Made by a program: the position numbers and the translations under genes. A stretch of 64,000 bases of DNA from Gemmatimonas sp. Lineage in GTDB: Bacteria; Gemmatimonadota; Gemmatimonadetes; Gemmatimonadales; Gemmatimonadaceae. This document shows, piece by piece, positions 23,730 to 64,000 of the stretch. How positions within the stretch are numbered: position 1 is the stretch's first letter; every line of letters starts with the position of its first letter. The stretch is taken from assembly GCA_965279375.1 (NCBI GenBank), contig OZ257156.1, positions 1,120,001-1,184,000 of the forward strand. Direction: 5' to 3'. The notes beneath the pieces are model-generated. The model made no database searches, was not told the origin of the DNA, and worked only from the letters and a program-made list of their open reading frames with translations.

Positions 23730-23802
<73 letters not shown>

Positions 23803-50076: not shown

Positions 50077-50718
50077 TTAGCGAACCAGCGGCGCGATGAT
50101 GTCCGCGAACGCGGTCCGGGCCCGGTTCAACCGCGACTTCACGGTGCCCAGGTTCACGCCGGTGATTTCGGCGATTTCCTCGTACGACTTCCCCTCGAGC
50201 TCACGCAGCACGAACACCTCACGGTGGTGGCCCGGCAGCTTGCTCACCGACTGCTCCACCATCTCCTTCAGGTGCCGCTTCCGGTACAGGTCGTCCGGGC
50301 GCGTGTGCACGTCCTCGAACTGCAGAGGGCGATCCTCGTCCTCGAACTTGGCCTTGATGGCCTGAAAGAGCACCAGCGGGTTACGCGAGCGGTTGCGCAG
50401 CTCGTTCTTGGCCAGATTCGACGCGATGGTGTAGATCCACGTCGAGAACTTCTTGGAGCGGTCGAAGCGTCCGATGTGGCGGTAAACGCGGATGAAGACT
50501 TCCTGCACCAGGTCTTCTGCGCGGTCACGGTCGCCGATCGTGCGGTAGACGAAGTTGAGCAGGCGCCCCTGATACCGGTCGACCAGCTCTTCGAACGCCC
50601 GCTCCTCGCCATCGAGGAAGGCCGACACGACCTCGCCGTCTTCCAGCGTCCGCAGATGTTCGCGGACCGGGACGGTCTTGGTCTGGTTGGTCAGGTGCGT
50701 ACGAGCCAGTGCGGCCAT
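50077..50718 (-). CDS. ECF RNA polymerase sigma factor (RpoE-like)
   Basis: AEDLVQEVF, FSTWIYTIA.N and SYEEIAEI..GTVKSRLNRAR motifs. Confidence 0.93.
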   Translation of the reverse strand: MAALARTHLTNQTKTVPVREHLRTLEDGEVVSAFLDGEERAFEELVDRYQGRLLNFVYRTIGDRDRAEDLVQEVFIRVYRHIGRFDRSKKFSTWIYTIASNLAKNELRNRSRNPLVLFQAIKAKFEDEDRPLQFEDVHTRPDDLYRKRHLKEMVEQSVSKLPGHHREVFVLRELEGKSYEEIAEITGVNLGTVKSRLNRARTAFADIIAPLVR

Positions 50719-50824
50719 GGGTGAAGCCCTCCTCCTGCGGTGACACGAACCAAGGGGCTCGTGGCGCGTCCAGTCGAGATGCCGGGCGATCCGGCATACC
50801 ATCACGTCGCGCAGGATGTCGTAG

Positions 50825-50841
50825 TGCACACCGCGTGCCGT
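50825..50841 (-). promoter_or_regulatory. sigma54 (-24/-12) promoter candidate upstream of the ECF sigma gene
   Basis: ACGGCACGCGGTGTGCA has GG-N10-GC spacing with a GGCACG core. Confidence 0.45.
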
Positions 50842-51064
50842 TGGGAACCTGACGGAACATTCGCGCGCAAATGAATACGCCACAGCGTGTTAGCTGGATG
50901 CATCCCGCGTCACCCTTCCTCACCGGTCGAGCGCGAGCGACGTCAGCTTCTCGAAAAGAGGACACGCCAAGGGGACACTCCCCCTGTCGTGTTGACGGTC
51001 CTGCTCGTTCTACAACGCCGAGTCCGCTTGGCGGACAGATCCGCTGCGAGACACGGCGCTGCCG

Positions 51065-52305: not shown

Positions 52306-53745
52306 TCAGGCGACAACGGGCGCAGCGGACGACGCCGTTTCGGCATCGGCCGGATCGTACACCGTCACGGGGCCGAGTCCAAGCGCAGCGAGCGGTTCGC
52401 GGATAACGGATGCGTCACCAACGACGACGACCTGCAGGCGCGCCGGATCGAGATGCGTCTGCGCCACACGCAGGACATCGGCCGCGGTGACCGCTCGCAC
52501 GCGCTCACGATAGTTGTCGAAGTAGTTCGACGGCAGGCGGAAGATTTCCACGTTGGCGAGACCGCCAGCCACTTCGGCCGTCGTTTCGAACCGAATGGGG
52601 AACACGCCCACCAGATAGTCCGTCGCCAACGACAGCTCGGCGTCGGTCACCGGCGCCTCGCGAATGCGCGCGAACTCTATCTGGATTTCACGAAGCGCAT
52701 CGGCGGTGACAGCGGTCTCCACTGCCGTCGAGATCTCGAAGGGACTCGCTGCACGTCGCCAATCGAACGCGGAATGCGCGCCGTACGTGTACGCGTGCAC
52801 TTCGCGCAGGTTGAGATTGAGCCGCGACGAGAAGAGTCCGCCGAGGATCGCGTTCATGACGATGAGCGGGAAGTAGTCATCGTGCAGACGCGGCACGGCC
52901 ACATGTCCGACGCGCAGCTCTGACTGCGGGGCATCGGACTTGTCGATGATATGCACGCGCGGTTCGCGGAAACGCGGCAGGTCGAGTGGCTCGGTGACCT
53001 CTGGCGCCGTGCCCGCCCAGTCGCCGAAGTAGCGCGACGCATGGCGCACCGCGTCATCGACGGTGATGTCACCAACCACCATCAGCGCAGTGGAGTTGGG
53101 GCGATAGAACTGCGAGTGGTACTGCGCCGTGCGGTCATGCGTGATGCGCTCGATGCTTGCTTCGTCGCCGCCGGCAAGTCGCGCGAAGCGCGAATCGCCA
53201 TTGTAGAGCAACCGCGAGAAGAAGACATCGGCGAGTCCGCGCGGTTCGGCGCGCAGCTGCGCGAGATCAGCGAGCCGTTCGGCGCGCAACCGATCGAGTT
53301 CGCTCTCGGGGAATGCGGGGAAGCGCAGCACTTCGGCCAGCACCGCGAACGCGTCTTCCACGCGTGACGCGAGCGACGTGAGTTGCACGATCGCCGAATC
53401 CCAGTCGGCGCCAGTGTCGAGTGTGGTGCCCAGCGTTTCCAGTCGTTCGGCCAACTGCAGCGCATTCATGTCGCGCGTGCCTTCCGCGAGCGCGCGCGTG
53501 GTCATCTGCGCAAGTCCTTCGGCGTCGCGGGGATCGCGGGTCGCGCCGGCTTCCACGACCGCCAGCATCGTCACCACCGGATAGGCCGCCACCGGGGACA
53601 CGATGATGCGCAGGCCATTGGCCAGGATGCGCGTTTCGAACGACGGGAAGTGATACGGACGCGGAGGCGCTGCGTGTGGGCGTGGCGGTGCACCGGCCTT
53701 CATCACCGCGCGCTCGGCGGTCGTGTCACTTGTTGTGTCACTCAT
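52306..53745 (-). CDS. M16B peptidase, non-catalytic subunit
   Basis: M16 fold motifs (LANGL, ILGGLFSSRLNLNLRE) but no HxxEH. Confidence 0.88.
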   Translation of the reverse strand: MSDTTSDTTAERAVMKAGAPPRPHAAPPRPYHFPSFETRILANGLRIIVSPVAAYPVVTMLAVVEAGATRDPRDAEGLAQMTTRALAEGTRDMNALQLAERLETLGTTLDTGADWDSAIVQLTSLASRVEDAFAVLAEVLRFPAFPESELDRLRAERLADLAQLRAEPRGLADVFFSRLLYNGDSRFARLAGGDEASIERITHDRTAQYHSQFYRPNSTALMVVGDITVDDAVRHASRYFGDWAGTAPEVTEPLDLPRFREPRVHIIDKSDAPQSELRVGHVAVPRLHDDYFPLIVMNAILGGLFSSRLNLNLREVHAYTYGAHSAFDWRRAASPFEISTAVETAVTADALREIQIEFARIREAPVTDAELSLATDYLVGVFPIRFETTAEVAGGLANVEIFRLPSNYFDNYRERVRAVTAADVLRVAQTHLDPARLQVVVVGDASVIREPLAALGLGPVTVYDPADAETASSAAPVVA

Positions 53746-55055
53746 GCGCCCACCTCAACGCCTTCGTGCGACGATTCCGCGTCGGCCGTTTCTTCGGCGG
53801 GCACGAACAGCAACAGTGCCCGATTGTCCGGGCCGAGTCGCTCGCGCACGAGCGCGGTCACATCGGCGGCGGTGACTTGCTGATAGCGCGCGACCTGTTC
53901 GTTGGCGAGAGAGGCGTCTCCAAAATAGGTCGCAAAGCGCGAAAGCTGATCGGCGCGTTCCGCGGCGGACTGCAGGCTGGTCACGAAGCTCGTTTCGATG
54001 AGCGCGCGCGCACGGGCGACCTCCGCCTCGGTCACGCCGTTGGTGTGGAGCAGATCGAGTTCGGCGAGCACGGCGCGTTCGAGGGCGTCCGGTGTCACAT
54101 CAGGGTGCGCGGTGACGTCCACCACCAACAGATCGCTGCCCTTGGCGAGATCATAGGTGAATGCCGTGGCTTGCGAGGCAACACGTTGTCCGCGCACGAG
54201 TGATTGCTCGAGTCGGCAGCCGGTGCGCAGTCCCAGGACCGCCGCGGCCAGACTTGCGGCGTAGTAGCCATCGGTCCCAAAGACCGGTGTGCGACAGGCG
54301 ACGAGCAGTCGAGGTAGCGCCACCGCATCGGCTACCACTTCGCGTAGGGTCGTTCCAAAAACGGGGGTTACTGACATATCGCGCAGCGGCGGGCGCGCAC
54401 TGCCGGCGGCGATCGGACCGAAGTACTCCTCGATCAGCCGCATGGCCTCGGTGCGCTCGAAATCACCAGCGATGGTGAGCACTGCGTTGTCTGGCGTGTA
54501 GTACGTGCTGAAAAACTCCGCCACGTCTTCGAGCGACGCGTCCGAGAGATGCTCCATCGAACCGATCAGCGAGTGATGGAACGGATGGCCTTCGGGGAAG
54601 CAGAGTGCGGGGAGGCGCTCCCACCACGTGCCGTAGGGCTGGTTGTCGACCGACCAGCGCCGCTCGTTCTTGACCACGTCGCGTTGCGTGTCGAGCTTCA
54701 CTTGCGTCAGCGCAGGGAGCATGCGTCCCATGCGGTCCGCTTCCAGCCAGAGCGCAATCGCGAGTTGGTTGGAGGGCAGTGTTTCGTAGTAGTTTGTCCG
54801 ATCGAGCCACGTCGAACCATTGAGCGTACCGCCGGCCCGCTGCACCAGTTCGAAATGTTCGTTCGCCTCGACGTTCGCCGAACCCTGAAACAGCATGTGT
54901 TCGAACAGATGGGCAAAGCCGGTTCGCTCTGGACGTTCGTTCGCCGAACCGACGTGATACCACAAGTTGACCGCGACGATCGGCGCTGTGTGATCTTGGG
55001 AAAGCACCACATGCAGGCCGTTCGGGAGGCGGTAGCTCTCGACAGGAATGCGCAT
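53742..55055 (-). CDS. M16B zinc peptidase, catalytic subunit
   Basis: GFAHLFEHMLF, RTNYYE and VVKNERR motifs. Confidence 0.92.
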   Translation of the reverse strand: MRIPVESYRLPNGLHVVLSQDHTAPIVAVNLWYHVGSANERPERTGFAHLFEHMLFQGSANVEANEHFELVQRAGGTLNGSTWLDRTNYYETLPSNQLAIALWLEADRMGRMLPALTQVKLDTQRDVVKNERRWSVDNQPYGTWWERLPALCFPEGHPFHHSLIGSMEHLSDASLEDVAEFFSTYYTPDNAVLTIAGDFERTEAMRLIEEYFGPIAAGSARPPLRDMSVTPVFGTTLREVVADAVALPRLLVACRTPVFGTDGYYAASLAAAVLGLRTGCRLEQSLVRGQRVASQATAFTYDLAKGSDLLVVDVTAHPDVTPDALERAVLAELDLLHTNGVTEAEVARARALIETSFVTSLQSAAERADQLSRFATYFGDASLANEQVARYQQVTAADVTALVRERLGPDNRALLLFVPAEETADAESSHEGVEVGA

Positions 55056-57915: not shown

Positions 57916-59313
57916 TCAGATGGTGCGCACATCCCCCGGCGCGGGCGCATCCACCGTGTACCCACCGCCACGCAGCGACTCGGCAAATGCCTCCTGCGAC
58001 GCGCGCTCGCCGTGCACCAGATGCACGCGTGGCTGTCCACGTCCGTCCTTCACTCCACCTGCGCGGACCTCGTCCAGCCAATGGCGCAGCTCGGTACGAT
58101 CACCATGCGCGCTATAGCCGTTCAGTACCTCCACCTGCGCGGCCAACTCCACGTCGTCCCCCAGCACGCGCAACAGCGGGCGTCGTTCGACGATGCGACG
58201 GCCAAGCGTATGCTCCGCCTGGAAGCCCACGATCAGAATCGTGTTGCGCGGATCGCTGGCGCCATTGCGCAGGTGATGCAGAATGCGCCCAGACTCCGCC
58301 ATCCCGGAGGCCGCGATGATGATCATCGGACCGTGCGCCGCGTTGAGCGCTTTCGATTCGCGCACGTCGCGCGTGAATCGCACCAGCGGAAACGCAAACA
58401 GATCCGGCGTCTCGCGCACTAACGCCTCGCTGCGATCGTACACCTCGGGGTGCATCGCGAATACGTCGGTGGCATTGATGGCCAGCGGCGAATCGACGAT
58501 CACCGGAATGCTGGGGATCTTTCCTTCGCGCAACAGCGCGTGCAGATCGTACACGAGTTCCTGCGTGCGTCCCACCGCAAACGCCGGAATGAGAATGCGC
58601 CCACCGCGCGCCGCCGTTTCGCGCACCACGCGGGCGAGATGCTCACGCGCGCCTTCCACCGATTCGTGATCGCGATCGCCGTAGGTGGACTCACACAGAA
58701 TCACGTCGGCCCCACCGCCGGGCGCCTCGGGATCGCGAATGATCGGCAGCCCCGATCGTCCGATGTCGCCGGAGAAAACGATGCGCTTCATCTCGTTCCC
58801 TTCCCGCGCTTCGATTACCACGCAGGCCGAACCGAGGATGTGCCCCGCGTCGGTGTACATCGCGCGCACGCCGTCGGTGACGTTGAACCATTTGTGGTAC
58901 GGCATGCCGACGATGCACTCCTGAGTGCGAGTCGCGTCGGCCATCGTGTAGAGCGGTGCGGCATGCGGCCGGCCGTGTCGCTCGAGAAAATCGGCGTCCT
59001 TTTCCTGGATATGCGCCGAGTCGGCGAGCATGACGGCGCAGAGGTCACGCGTGGCGGCGGTCGACCAGATGGTTTGCTTGAAGCCCTGATTCACCAAAAA
59101 GGGCAGGCGGCCAGCGTGGTCGATGTGCGCATGGGACAGAATCACCGCATCGATTTCATCGATCGGGAGCGGCAGGCGCGCGTTCTTGTCGCGGCTTTCG
59201 GCGCGTCGTCCCTGAAACATCCCGCAATCGAGAAGTACGGTGCGTGTCCCAACACGCAGGATGTGGCACGATCCGGTGACTTCCTGTGCGGCACCGCTGA
59301 ACTCGATCTGCAC
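57916..59313 (-). CDS. Metallo-beta-lactamase / beta-CASP ribonuclease
   Basis: GAAQEVTGS, SHAHIDH, AGHILGS, FSGD, ESTYG, SAHGD and VHGE motifs. Confidence 0.92.
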   Translation of the reverse strand: MQIEFSGAAQEVTGSCHILRVGTRTVLLDCGMFQGRRAESRDKNARLPLPIDEIDAVILSHAHIDHAGRLPFLVNQGFKQTIWSTAATRDLCAVMLADSAHIQEKDADFLERHGRPHAAPLYTMADATRTQECIVGMPYHKWFNVTDGVRAMYTDAGHILGSACVVIEAREGNEMKRIVFSGDIGRSGLPIIRDPEAPGGGADVILCESTYGDRDHESVEGAREHLARVVRETAARGGRILIPAFAVGRTQELVYDLHALLREGKIPSIPVIVDSPLAINATDVFAMHPEVYDRSEALVRETPDLFAFPLVRFTRDVRESKALNAAHGPMIIIAASGMAESGRILHHLRNGASDPRNTILIVGFQAEHTLGRRIVERRPLLRVLGDDVELAAQVEVLNGYSAHGDRTELRHWLDEVRAGGVKDGRGQPRVHLVHGERASQEAFAESLRGGGYTVDAPAPGDVRTI

Positions 59314-59343
59314 TCCGCCTCCATCTGGTGGGAGGCGCGAGAC

Positions 59344-59673
59344 TCAGACGCTCAACAGTTTCTGCTGCGCCTCGAGCTGTGCCTCAATTCGTCCGCACAT
59401 GAGGTCGCACAGCTTGAGGACGGTGCGATCGGCGAGGGCATAATACACAAAGAGCCCTTCCTTGCGTCGCTTTACAAAGCCGAGCGCATGCAAAACCTGC
59501 AAGTGCTTGGAGACGTTCGCCTGCCCTAGGCCCGTCTCTTCGACCAGCTCGTTGACCGACATTTCGCGCGACTGCAGCGCCGTGAGCAGTTGCAGCCGTG
59601 CGGGTTCCGAGAGCGCCTTGAAGCGTTCCGCGATCATTCGAAGCACATCGGCAGAGAGCGGCGTCCGCCCCAT
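59344..59673 (-). CDS. ArsR/SmtB-family transcriptional regulator
   Basis: FKALSEPARL, QANVSKHL and RRKEG..VYY motifs. Confidence 0.92.
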   Translation of the reverse strand: MGRTPLSADVLRMIAERFKALSEPARLQLLTALQSREMSVNELVEETGLGQANVSKHLQVLHALGFVKRRKEGLFVYYALADRTVLKLCDLMCGRIEAQLEAQQKLLSV

Positions 59674-59829: not shown

Positions 59830-61404
<1,575 letters not shown>

Positions 61405-61410
61405 ACGTTG

Positions 61411-61521
61411 AAAAACAAAAAAGGCGCGGGTCCACCCCCCGACAGGGAGCGAACACTCGCGCCTTCAACTGCCGGAGACTTTCTCTCCGGTCGTCAAGGT
61501 TGGCCGATCAAGCGGCCTTTT
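61411..61521 (-). promoter_or_regulatory. Structured leader with overlapping antiterminator/intrinsic terminator (attenuator candidate)
   Basis: Hairpins GGCCG-CTTGAT-CGGCC and CCGGAGA-GAAAG-TCTCCGG, then the terminator AAGGCGCG...CGCGCCTT-TTTTGTTTTT ending 6 nt before ATG 61404. Confidence 0.65.
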
Positions 61522-61710
61522 TACTTTGCGTTTCGTTGTACTGCTGTTAGTGAATATGCCGACTCACACGGCAATAGCAAGTGAAGAGCAGACGACCTGA
61601 GGGTCGTGGATCACACCATCTGCGTCACGACTGATCTCGACCTGCTTGCTCGCACGTGCCGATTGCTGCGTCGTTTCGCTGCGCCGTGGGATGCGGGTTC
61701 GAACGCGCGT

Positions 61711-62433
61711 TCAGACGTGCTTGCTGAGCAACTCCAACCGGTGACGCAGGTCGCCAAGCGCCTTCGACTTGAATGTGCTCCGCGTGTCCTCAAGGACGGC
61801 GATGGTATCGTCGATCGCTTGCTGCAGCTGCGCGCCACGCGGACAGTTGATGAGCTGACAGGGGTGCGACTGCGCGTCGCCTTTGCCCGCAAGCGCCTGG
61901 CCCAGATGTTCGAGATCCGACAAGGATCCCATCACGTTGCGCAGCGTCATCGCCAGAAACAGGTCAACGCCGCTCCTGGCCTCGTCCGCCGCCGCCGGCA
62001 GCACGTCGAGTTTGCGTCGATACTCTCGCAGCCGCGCCTCGGTGTCCTGCATCGTTTGATACGATCGAAAGCGCGCCACTGCCGCCGACACGCGCGCGAG
62101 CAACAGCGTGAAGTCCACCGGTTTCACGAGATACGCCGTGACCGGCAGCTCGATGCACGCGACTGCAGAACGCACCGACGGAAATCCGGTGATGATGATG
62201 ATCGGCAGGCCGCCACTCAGGTGCGACACCTGCTGTACGAGATCGAGATCGGCGTTCCCCGGCATCTCGAGATCGGTGATCAGCAGATCGTATGAGGCCT
62301 TCGCGATGGCACTGACGGCCTGCGGCGCGTCCTCCACCGTCTCCACCGTGTACCCCTCGCCGCGCAGCAACTCCGCGGTGGAGTGCAGAAAAGTCGGCTC
62401 ATCATCGGCAATGAGAATGCGGCCGCGACTCAT
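61711..62433 (-). CDS. Response regulator with uncharacterised helical output domain
   Basis: REC (IADDE, ITDLEMP, ITG, VKP) followed by a coiled coil, a CQLINC motif and a helical tail. No HTH recognised. Confidence 0.88.
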   Translation of the reverse strand: MSRGRILIADDEPTFLHSTAELLRGEGYTVETVEDAPQAVSAIAKASYDLLITDLEMPGNADLDLVQQVSHLSGGLPIIIITGFPSVRSAVACIELPVTAYLVKPVDFTLLLARVSAAVARFRSYQTMQDTEARLREYRRKLDVLPAAADEARSGVDLFLAMTLRNVMGSLSDLEHLGQALAGKGDAQSHPCQLINCPRGAQLQQAIDDTIAVLEDTRSTFKSKALGDLRHRLELLSKHV

Positions 62434-64000
62434 CGGAGTACCCCTGTGTCGATAGGAACCATGGGCAAGCGCACCTCGAATTCGGTGCCGCCCGTCGGAC
62501 GATCACGCACCACGACTTCGCCGCCCACTGCGAGCACGGACTGACGTACCAGCGAGAGTCCGATACCCATACCACCCGTCTTCACGGTGCGATCCTTCGT
62601 GCTGAAGAACGGCTCGAAGATGCGCTCACGTATGGCATCGGGAATGCCCGGTCCTTCATCGCAAACGCGAATGACGCATTCGTCGCCCTCGCGCACCGCC
62701 GACACTTCGATGGTGCCATGCTCCGGCGATGCATCGAGCGCGTTCTGCACAAGGTTGTAGAGCGTCTGACGCAACAACGCGTCGGGCACCGGCACGAGAC
62801 TTGGCGCCTTGGCGACGCTGGTCACGATGCGAATGTTGCGCGCGCGATTGACCTGCTCGAGAAAGCTGACTGCATCGCTGATGGCCAGCACGACCGACGA
62901 GTTGCTGTGCATTGACTGGTCGGGACGATACGTCTCGTAGAGTTGACGCGTGACCGCCGCGATGCGCGCGATCTCGCGTTCGATGGCACCGACAAATCGG
63001 AAATGCGGATGATCCGCTGCGATACCGCCGCGTACGAGGAGAAACGCGTTCTGAATACCCGCCAGCGGATTGTTGATCTCGTGCGCCACGCGAGCCGCAA
63101 GCTGCCCCATGGTCGTCAGCGCCCCGATCTGCCGCAAAGACTCCTCGGCGCGTTTGCGTTCGGAGAGATCGTGTCCCTCCACCAGCAGTTGCGTGACGAC
63201 TTCGTTGGCGTCGCGAATCGGGCGCAGTGAGAAGTCGATGGTGCCTGGCCGCTTGTCGGCAGTCGTGATGGTGACCTCGAAGCGCGTCGGGTCTCCGCCG
63301 CGCGCGCGTGCGAGGCGCTCCTGTACACGGGCGGCGGTCACCTCGTCGTCGATCCACCACGGCAGTCGCTCGAAGTCCGCGCCTTGCATCGCATCCACCG
63401 ACAGGCCAGCCACGGCAGCCGCTGCGCGATTCGCTTCGAGAATGGTGCCATCGAGGTCGAGCAGCAACTCGAGCTGAAAGGCGCTCTCGAACATCACGCG
63501 GAACCGACGCTCGCTGCGCTCGCGCTCCGCTTCACTGCGCGCGCGCTCGGTGATGTCGGCGGAAATCCCGAGCACGCGCGCCGGCGCGCCATCCACCGTA
63601 CGCTCGATCAATCGGCCGCGATCCACGATGGTGTGCCAACTGCCATCGCCGGCCTGAATACGGTACTCGCATTCGTATACGTCGCTCTTGCCGGCCAGAT
63701 GCGCACGCATCGCTTCGGTCACGCGCGGCAAGTCCTCGACGTGCATGATTCTCGTCCACCCCGAGGTGGGCCCGTTCAACTGCGCCGGATCGTAGCCGAG
63801 CGAGCGAACCAGTGCATTGCTGCGATGCACCTGGTCCTGCAACAGGTCCAGCTCCCAGACGCCATCGGTCGATCGCTCGATCGCGCGCTGCATGCGCGCC
63901 ATGCCTTCGGTGCTCGCCTGCTCCCATCGCTTGCGGGCGAGCCACAATGTGACCGACGCGAGCGCCGACACGGCCAATCCGAGCACAAGCAGCAGTTCGG
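62430..64000 (-). CDS. PAS-domain sensor histidine kinase, 5'-truncated by window edge
   Basis: TM segment, two PAS/PAC domains, HEINNPL, NLVQNA, D.GPG, FEPFFSTK and GMGIGL motifs. Confidence 0.93.
   Translation of the reverse strand, partial: ELLLVLGLAVSALASVTLWLARKRWEQASTEGMARMQRAIERSTDGVWELDLLQDQVHRSNALVRSLGYDPAQLNGPTSGWTRIMHVEDLPRVTEAMRAHLAGKSDVYECEYRIQAGDGSWHTIVDRGRLIERTVDGAPARVLGISADITERARSEAERERSERRFRVMFESAFQLELLLDLDGTILEANRAAAAVAGLSVDAMQGADFERLPWWIDDEVTAARVQERLARARGGDPTRFEVTITTADKRPGTIDFSLRPIRDANEVVTQLLVEGHDLSERKRAEESLRQIGALTTMGQLAARVAHEINNPLAGIQNAFLLVRGGIAADHPHFRFVGAIEREIARIAAVTRQLYETYRPDQSMHSNSSVVLAISDAVSFLEQVNRARNIRIVTSVAKAPSLVPVPDALLRQTLYNLVQNALDASPEHGTIEVSAVREGDECVIRVCDEGPGIPDAIRERIFEPFFSTKDRTVKTGGMGIGLSLVRQSVLAVGGEVVVRDRPTGGTEFEVRLPMVPIDTGVLR

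Follow-up and report, generated by a model that had tools for sequence, protein, structure and literature searches.

The leader RNA at positions 61411..61521 (minus strand) of the window, which is the whole 64,000-nucleotide stretch of Gemmatimonas DNA that we analysed, is a member of a conserved RNA family without a match in Rfam. The gene before one copy of this RNA repeatedly encodes a receiver protein whose C-terminal domain has no annotation, and this gene lies behind that of a membrane PAS-PAS histidine kinase. Based on comparative sequence analysis, we propose that this response regulator probably represents a class of RNA-binding antiterminators, controlled in the manner of ANTAR proteins and acting on a RAT-like target, that runs a stress regulon. 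The parts of the leader are as follows.

61553..61580, minus strand: predicted sigma70-type promoter TTGCTA-N16-CATATT (from sequence and conservation)
61502..61517, minus strand: P1 hairpin, with structure kept, sequence and loop variable, and missing in a few copies
61462..61499, minus strand: core antiterminator hairpin, 38 nt, the predicted protein-binding site (from sequence comparison)
61472..61490, minus strand: P3, the variable apical stem-loop that caps the core, with many two-sided changes
61421..61465, minus strand: intrinsic terminator stem, whose 5' AAGG is common to the core hairpin
61411..61420, minus strand: U-rich terminator tail, with T columns conserved across copies

A sequence-only reading of this DNA had described an attenuator here, and all of its elements were found on the minus strand; the leader region folds with z = -3.84, and 0 of 200 shuffles fold as well. 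The core hairpin is made up of a CCUU/AAGG stem, a bulged G, a 3-bp stem and a G·A internal loop, with its 5' arm CCUUGAC starting at 61499 and its 3' arm GUUGAAGG ending at 61462 on the minus strand. The competition between antiterminator and terminator that the same reading had suggested is borne out by computation on the leader and by the support for both structures across 45 homologues. At minimum energy the leader folds into the terminator, 5.4 kcal/mol below a fold in which the antiterminator is forced. For transcripts that end before the terminator 3' arm, the prediction gives the outer antiterminator pair a probability of 0.74-0.98, which drops to a computed 0.00 with that arm present. 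The antiterminator is predicted to fold first and to dominate until the terminator 3' arm is made.

Two other readings of the leader were rejected by eye. A ribosome-mediated attenuator would feature a conserved leader peptide overlapping the antiterminator; there is no ATG between promoter and terminator in the window and the alignments hold no conserved start column. The leader's own promoter was also judged not to be of the sigma54 type, there being no GG at -24 before TTGC. The promoter at 61553-61580 was missed by a simple promoter scan.

We find homologues of the leader well beyond this genome. A blastn search with the leader region against 60 relatives gave some match in 19 genomes and the whole element at 11 loci, at all of which (11/11) the first downstream frame resembles the same activator. 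The core pattern was then run over 401 genomes of the phylum and over metagenome contigs, and a hairpin-plus-terminator filter kept 60 distinct sites. A covariance model, R1, was built from 45 of these aligned with MAFFT, the other 15 being near-duplicates, doubtful or atypical in P1. In the plain MAFFT alignment (n = 45), 82.9% of cells pair and two-sided changes occur in 17 of 25 pairs; the covariation score was reached by 0 of 500 shuffles, and slid partners pair only 33-42%. The covarying homologues that a conserved RNA calls for thus exist. Model-fitted alignments of 67 and 47 matches agree with the MAFFT result, both leaning towards the model. In the core hairpin, 90% of cells are paired, and the frequent G-U exchanges (G-C/G-U and A-U/G-U) point to a function at the RNA level on the minus strand. 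Two-sided changes occur in 7/7 pairs of P1, which has loops of 3-7 nt and is missing in copies from L226, L229 and L232. The terminator has 98.6% of cells paired over 8 pairs (n = 45), with most pairs barely varying, and beats the antiterminator by more than 0.5 kcal/mol in 44/45 homologues (median 5.6).

The family consensus is a bulged hairpin, CCUURRCG…AGUYGAAGG, the AAGG of which doubles as the start of the intrinsic terminator. Few bases are conserved: CC/GG, the bulged G (64/67 copies) and a C-G pair beside the G·A, of which the loop G is kept in 63/67 and the loop A in 59/67 copies, while P1 and P3 are free to vary. We considered a k-turn in the core and gave it up: where a k-turn would require an invariant A, the position changes and covaries like any ordinary pair. 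The sequence-only reading had also pointed out three UUGA motifs. They are present in this leader, but they co-occur in only 4/45 homologues (P1 region 8/45, 5' arm 22/45, 3' arm 18/45), and we rejected the triplet as a recognition code.

A promoter upstream of the element, also proposed from the one sequence, is supported by the homologues. A promoter-like pattern of the TTG(A/C)-N16-19-TANNNT type precedes 79/143 copies (shuffled mean 4.5, maximum 11), mostly within 10 nt of the model start, so the RNA most likely forms the 5' end of a transcript of its own. The promoter spacing of the window's leader is identical in four other loci (L010, L011, L037, L198). The suspicion that the element belongs to no known family held up as well: Rfam 15 gave no match at gathering score in the window except a tRNA, cmscan of the 601-nt leader region returned one chance match at E 5.7 outside the motif, and the motif had no Rfam match in 10 homologous loci. 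Known riboswitch and T-box classes were discarded on the same grounds, since no family model in Rfam 15 matched. In the literature, no title or abstract was found that describes the RNA or the domain; the supplements of PMC5737381 and PMC11109978 might list the motif, and one small supplement of PMC8632094 has no match to it.

Copies number up to 17 per genome in Gemmatimonadota. In the window's own genome no further copy was found by blastn, pattern or model, and none upstream of the kinase with filters off. Tandem and divergent copies lie within a few hundred bases of each other at five loci (L097:1183-1577, L141:1467-1855, L264:3776-4260, L231:8145-8652, L263:4563-5064), which suggests double attenuators or back-to-back promoters. 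An RNA subtype with an altered core is followed by a family of 66-83-aa proteins (L214:3138-3335, L219:1060-1272, L238:11094-11330, L220:5367-5615, L218:5020-5223, L237:4046-4282), two members of which were scanned and have no Pfam match. At the level of the pattern, there are five exact matches in viral contigs (L310-L314).

The genes around the leader in the window are as follows.

61711..62433, minus strand: response regulator, 240 aa, a receiver plus an unannotated C-terminal domain; candidate RNA-binding antiterminator (from sequence and co-occurrence)
61714..61971, minus strand: its C-terminal output domain, about residues 155-240, with helices, C192-x4-C197-P-R and basic positions 199, 218, 222, 224 and 230
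62430..64000, minus strand: 3' part of the membrane PAS-PAS histidine kinase, 969 aa, which runs past the window to C1:1185339
59830..61386, minus strand: NtrC-type receiver/sigma54 activator, the gene under the leader's predicted control, with a start common to homologues

The kinase gene overlaps the start of the regulator gene, homologous kinases occur in L213 and L236, and the PAS-PAS histidine kinase is likely the cognate kinase of the regulator. The activator start was placed at 61386, not 61404, from the MSHAALY shared by homologues. Sigma54 is present in this genome, and the single RNA copy there precedes the sigma54 activator. The activator had been taken as the downstream context of the attenuator. 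This is true of the window's genus, but the genes behind the RNA are many and various elsewhere. As a defining context it gives way to another gene, the constant partner being the upstream receiver protein gene instead. Other genes of the window, all on the minus strand, include an ArsR/SmtB regulator gene with an MBL-fold beta-CASP-like nuclease gene behind it (57916-59673, downstream of the activator), two adjacent M16-peptidase-subunit-like proteins (52306-55055) and an ECF-type sigma factor (50077-50883), the last two labelled by eye, and a tRNA gene with anticodon GAA (23730-23802) from the Rfam search.

The regulator carries the receiver residues D10, D11, D54, T82 and K104, and across the family D54 is kept in 96/109, T82 in 94/109 and K104 in 98/109 rows. 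No Pfam family covers the C-terminal domain. A profile of it finds 1111 clusters at 50% identity, the best 150 of which are mostly receiver fusions or fragments, with a few PAS fusions, and the regulator is also present in the named species Gemmatimonas phototrophica (P0077). C192 is conserved in 144/147 and C197 in 147/147 rows, and 93-100% of the same 147 rows have a basic residue at positions 199, 218, 222, 224 and 230, with a basic FKSK helix. The AlphaFold model (pLDDT 82) has a long helix, a second helix, a Cys loop and a confident C-terminal helix pair; its pTM of 0.45 leaves the packing of the helices uncertain. Foldseek with the domain model gave no match at E <= 0.001, and the VIA rows cover mostly residues 1-68 and generic helical hairpins; on this model, the fold searches speak neither for a new fold nor for a distinction from ANTAR. 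An output domain that is small, basic and helical and matches no known DNA-binding or enzyme family would fit RNA binding. The conserved Cys pair could mean that the domain senses metal or redox state, or that it has a protein partner. In P0231 and P0232 the domain is fused to PAS-type domains without a receiver, which suggests one-component versions. A protein atlas search gave one match at 0.76, a lead only.

Evidence for a functional link between RNA and domain comes from their co-occurrence. The domain is found in 51 of the 401 phylum genomes, and in 48 of them model R1 detects the RNA. It was also run on 109 of the 350 genomes without the domain, where matches are strong in 2 (G167, G325), marginal in 4 and absent in 103. 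This two-by-two table overstates independence, since the genomes share ancestry, both models were partly trained on them, and the negatives were picked by hand from the same genera, from genomes matching the pattern and from a spread of others. Presence and absence of RNA and domain agree within five genera (g1, g11, g47, g57, g75), with the exception of G167. In both strong cases a broader profile also failed to find the domain: G167 is assembled in 3 contigs, 97% complete, with one true copy of the RNA, and G325 in 210 contigs with 4 copies. The csbD loci of 22 domain-negative genomes have no RNA copy.

We also compared the positions of the two, using 149 listed RNA matches (36 further matches lie outside the counts). 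Among the matches listed, an RNA copy lies within 400 nt downstream of at least 34 of 54 domain matches, and at least 19 of the 54 regulator genes have a same-strand copy up to 5.5 kb upstream, that is, before the kinase-regulator operon. Linkage alone does not explain the co-occurrence, because 68/145 listed copies, in 24 domain-positive genomes, are more than 10 kb from the regulator or on other contigs; fragmented assemblies inflate this number, and G257 has distant copies on one 3.5-Mb contig.

As an out-of-sample test, we searched 301 genomes of the phylum of G437 (Acidobacteriia), in 4 of which the domain occurs. At both G580 paralogues and in G653, a distance of 76-88 nt separates the domain match from the best RNA model match downstream of it. 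By eye, one G741 gene, the G125 gene and the second G257 paralogue each have a diverged core plus terminator behind them; downstream of the domain in G382, G661 and the other G741 paralogue no core was seen, and G062 has a doubtful hairpin. G653 and one G580 locus have a core without an evident U-tract terminator, again by eye. Acidobacterial cores of this kind (L240:1950-1983, L241:1963-1996) have a promoter and possibly use a different expression platform. In a 6-genome sample of the phylum of G438, the domain occurs in 0/6. The searches of these two phyla and of G167 and G325 used a domain alignment of 35 rows in which one row (L223) is out of frame.

To infer what the RNA controls, we chose first downstream frames by a heuristic (strong copies in loci picked for several copies), which gave 98 distinct frames, and scanned 75 of them, leaving out 23 that were kinase-like, redundant or doubtful. 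The families (n = 75) are CsbD (10), DUF1328 (6), DUF4397 (5), LuxR-type (4), DUF892 (3), DUF5670, topoisomerase IB and outer-membrane barrel (2 each), and Ku, DUF6496, short-chain dehydrogenase, pyridoxamine-oxidase-like, PQQ dehydrogenase, glycosyltransferase, helix-hairpin-helix and a PAS-receiver protein (1 each); 33/75 frames are without any family. We take DUF1328, DUF892, Ku, topoisomerase IB and other downstream genes to have a role in stress, and csbD is a general stress family (PMC11109978). Copies also lie upstream of the kinase-regulator operon itself. The listing of copies and their downstream genes in other genomes that the sequence-only reading had recommended, together with a covariance model, yielded homologues in other genomes of the phylum. 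A 63-76-aa membrane protein without a Pfam match is encoded directly behind the RNA at five loci (L225:8053-8280, L228:10046-10261, L261:3406-3621, L265:4030-4218, L273:1671-1889) and has a homologue in the window's own genome near C1:1698303. A metagenomic copy precedes a gene for an HU-family DNA-binding protein (L165:1114-1395).

The stress regulon is not universal, since csbD has no RNA copy in 7 domain-positive genomes of the window's genus. A sigma54 -24/-12-like pattern lies upstream of csbD in 6/7 domain-positive versus 0/5 domain-negative genomes of the genus (sites L292, L297, L301, L302, L304, L286), a pattern that was shaped after seeing those sequences, an earlier one having matched one negative. 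In the window's own genome, the sigma54-like pattern occurs at 1/5 other stress-gene homologues, against a background of 6.7%. In Gemmatimonas, the stress genes may possibly stand below the activator at 59830-61386 in a sigma54 cascade.

We propose the following mechanism. Transcription would start just behind the conserved housekeeping-type promoter, at a start site predicted from its position. The core hairpin would form first and, unaided, would lose its AAGG to the terminator 3' arm, a step computed to be about 5 kcal/mol downhill, so that transcription would stop. The membrane PAS kinase would phosphorylate D54 of the regulator, as the gene overlap and the intact receiver residues suggest. 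The activated C-x4-C-P-R/FKSK domain may then clamp the core at its bulged G and G·A, holding the antiterminator, a step to which co-occurrence, synteny and the conserved basic residues point. The held antiterminator would keep AAGG from the terminator and permit read-through of the downstream gene. Judging from the positions of the copies, read-through would turn on stress genes, and often the kinase-regulator operon too, in related families, and the sigma54 activator in the window's genus. Where a copy precedes the kinase-regulator operon, positive feedback would result.

We weighed three other explanations. In the first, the RNA is a riboswitch or ion sensor, a ligand such as a second messenger, an ion or an osmolyte binds the bulged core, and the kinase-regulator pair is only a member of the regulated module. 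A multi-copy pattern before signalling and stress genes is known from second-messenger riboswitches, and here up to 17 copies per genome precede such genes, two genomes have the RNA without the domain, and a copy stands before the kinase-regulator operon in many genomes. We nevertheless regard a riboswitch as unlikely, for the conserved unpaired bases are few, the loops variable and P1 dispensable, the RNA co-occurs nearly one-to-one with one small protein domain in two phyla, csbD is without the element in the 22 domain-negative genomes, and the helical domain, of roughly 85 residues, does not look like any known enzyme family.

Somewhat less likely still is that another RNA-binding protein binds the hairpin and that the receiver protein acts upstream of it by protein contacts, for instance as an anti-anti-factor. 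Partner switching is usual in general stress systems, and a third protein would explain why G167 and G325 have only the RNA and why in some cases the domain stands alone. However, besides the kinase, no recurring third gene was noticed at the loci that we read one by one, and the C-terminal domain itself has an invariant basic patch. ANTAR does not follow the RNA either: it occurs in 9/40 RNA-positive versus 10/40 RNA-negative genomes and in 0/29 RNA-positive genomes of family f2, and CAT_RBD (PF03123) has 0 matches at E <= 1 in the window's own genome, which is 99.95% complete. A separate ANTAR protein is encoded in this genome (G000:C1:2260076-2260234; L307); it is common in the genus and was not found in most of the f2 genomes searched. 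Finally, a factor-independent attenuator (responding through folding kinetics, temperature or ionic strength) or the mere terminator of the upstream operon would agree with an antiterminator predicted to fold first and with the copy just downstream of at least 34 of the 54 regulator genes among the matches listed, where an operon terminator belongs, but this is very improbable given the promoter of the element's own, the many copies that follow no regulator gene, and a bulged G and G·A conserved beyond the needs of pairing.

The proposed RNA-binding antiterminator can be compared with several known systems. ANTAR is the established RNA-binding output of response regulators. As in the ANTAR regulators EutV/EutW, AmiR and NasR/NasT, described in PMC3369931 and PMC12591593, our regulator has a receiver, a coiled coil and a small helical output domain, and the same accounts match it in the cognate kinase, the multi-operon regulons and the PAS fusions. 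ANTAR regulators dimerise and bind RNA upon phosphorylation, and our family keeps the phospho-acceptor residues. Unlike in ANTAR proteins, PF03861 is found in 0/147 aligned members of the domain at E <= 0.01, the domain has a C-x4-C motif, and ANTAR genes do not co-occur with the RNA. In the dual-hairpin ANTAR targets (PMC3369931), a second hairpin stands before the hairpin that overlaps the terminator, and both the preceding hairpin and the overlap are found here. The two hairpins of those targets are short, with hexanucleotide loops whose first base is A and fourth base G (PMC3369931). In contrast, an A1/G4 hexaloop occurs in 0/45 P1 loops, P3 loops vary in length and sequence, and the conserved bases of our family lie in a bulge and an internal loop, not in terminal loops.

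The RNA itself is predicted to work like the RAT targets of CAT-domain proteins. RAT targets have two internal irregularities, which the bulge and internal loop of the core hairpin recall. Both systems, going by PMC12591593 and PMC3369931 on BglG, SacY and LicT, use a single stem-loop of about 30-40 nt that lies partly over a terminator, with termination as the default. Unlike RAT, the RNA has no Rfam match, a comparison made at the level of Rfam models, and there is no CAT_RBD in the window's own genome. Also unlike CAT/RAT, a receiver domain in place of PRD/PTS is the predicted source of control, and stress and signalling genes are targeted instead of sugar uptake. We predict a system that is EutV/ANTAR-like at the protein level and RAT-like at the RNA level, and that belongs to neither family by its domain.

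Two RNA motifs show partial resemblance. The atoC RNA motif (RF01733) likewise has hairpins and a terminator in a cis-regulatory position. It sits upstream of response regulators. It was rejected as an identity for our RNA: cmscan gave no match in the leader region, there was none among 150 of 444 genome candidates scored, and the seeds differ. The seed sequences in the supplement of PMC2864571, so far as seen, share no core with our family, and the motif is reported there from delta-Proteobacteria. [quoted passage not shown] Unlike our family, all 40 of its representatives come from Streptococcus (PMC11109978), a distinction made by description only.

At the level of the regulon, the targets csbD, DUF1328, DUF892, Ku, topoisomerase IB and short-chain oxidoreductase overlap those of sigma-factor general stress regulons. 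SigmaB, RpoS and PhyR-NepR-EcfG govern such regulons. Unlike in these, the genes here have housekeeping-type promoters followed by an attenuator, and control is therefore predicted after initiation. We would give even odds to the broader proposal that a new RNA-binding output domain unrelated to ANTAR, together with a bulged-hairpin antiterminator, runs the general stress response of many Gemmatimonadota, with positive feedback on its own operon, in place of an alternative sigma factor, and that Gemmatimonas has been rewired via the sigma54 activator.

A handful of families, namely CAT, ANTAR and HutP (PMC12591593), are known to act in protein-dependent antitermination. The regulatory logic proposed here is known; what appear to be new are the two families, of the domain and of the RNA, and the regulon. 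With a leader of about 110 nt and a protein of 240 aa, the parts are small, and the pair could be usable as an orthogonal transcription switch. If true, our proposal would give a function to over a thousand protein clusters labelled only as response regulator or CheY-like, and would offer a testable answer to how stress genes are controlled in an abundant, little-studied phylum.
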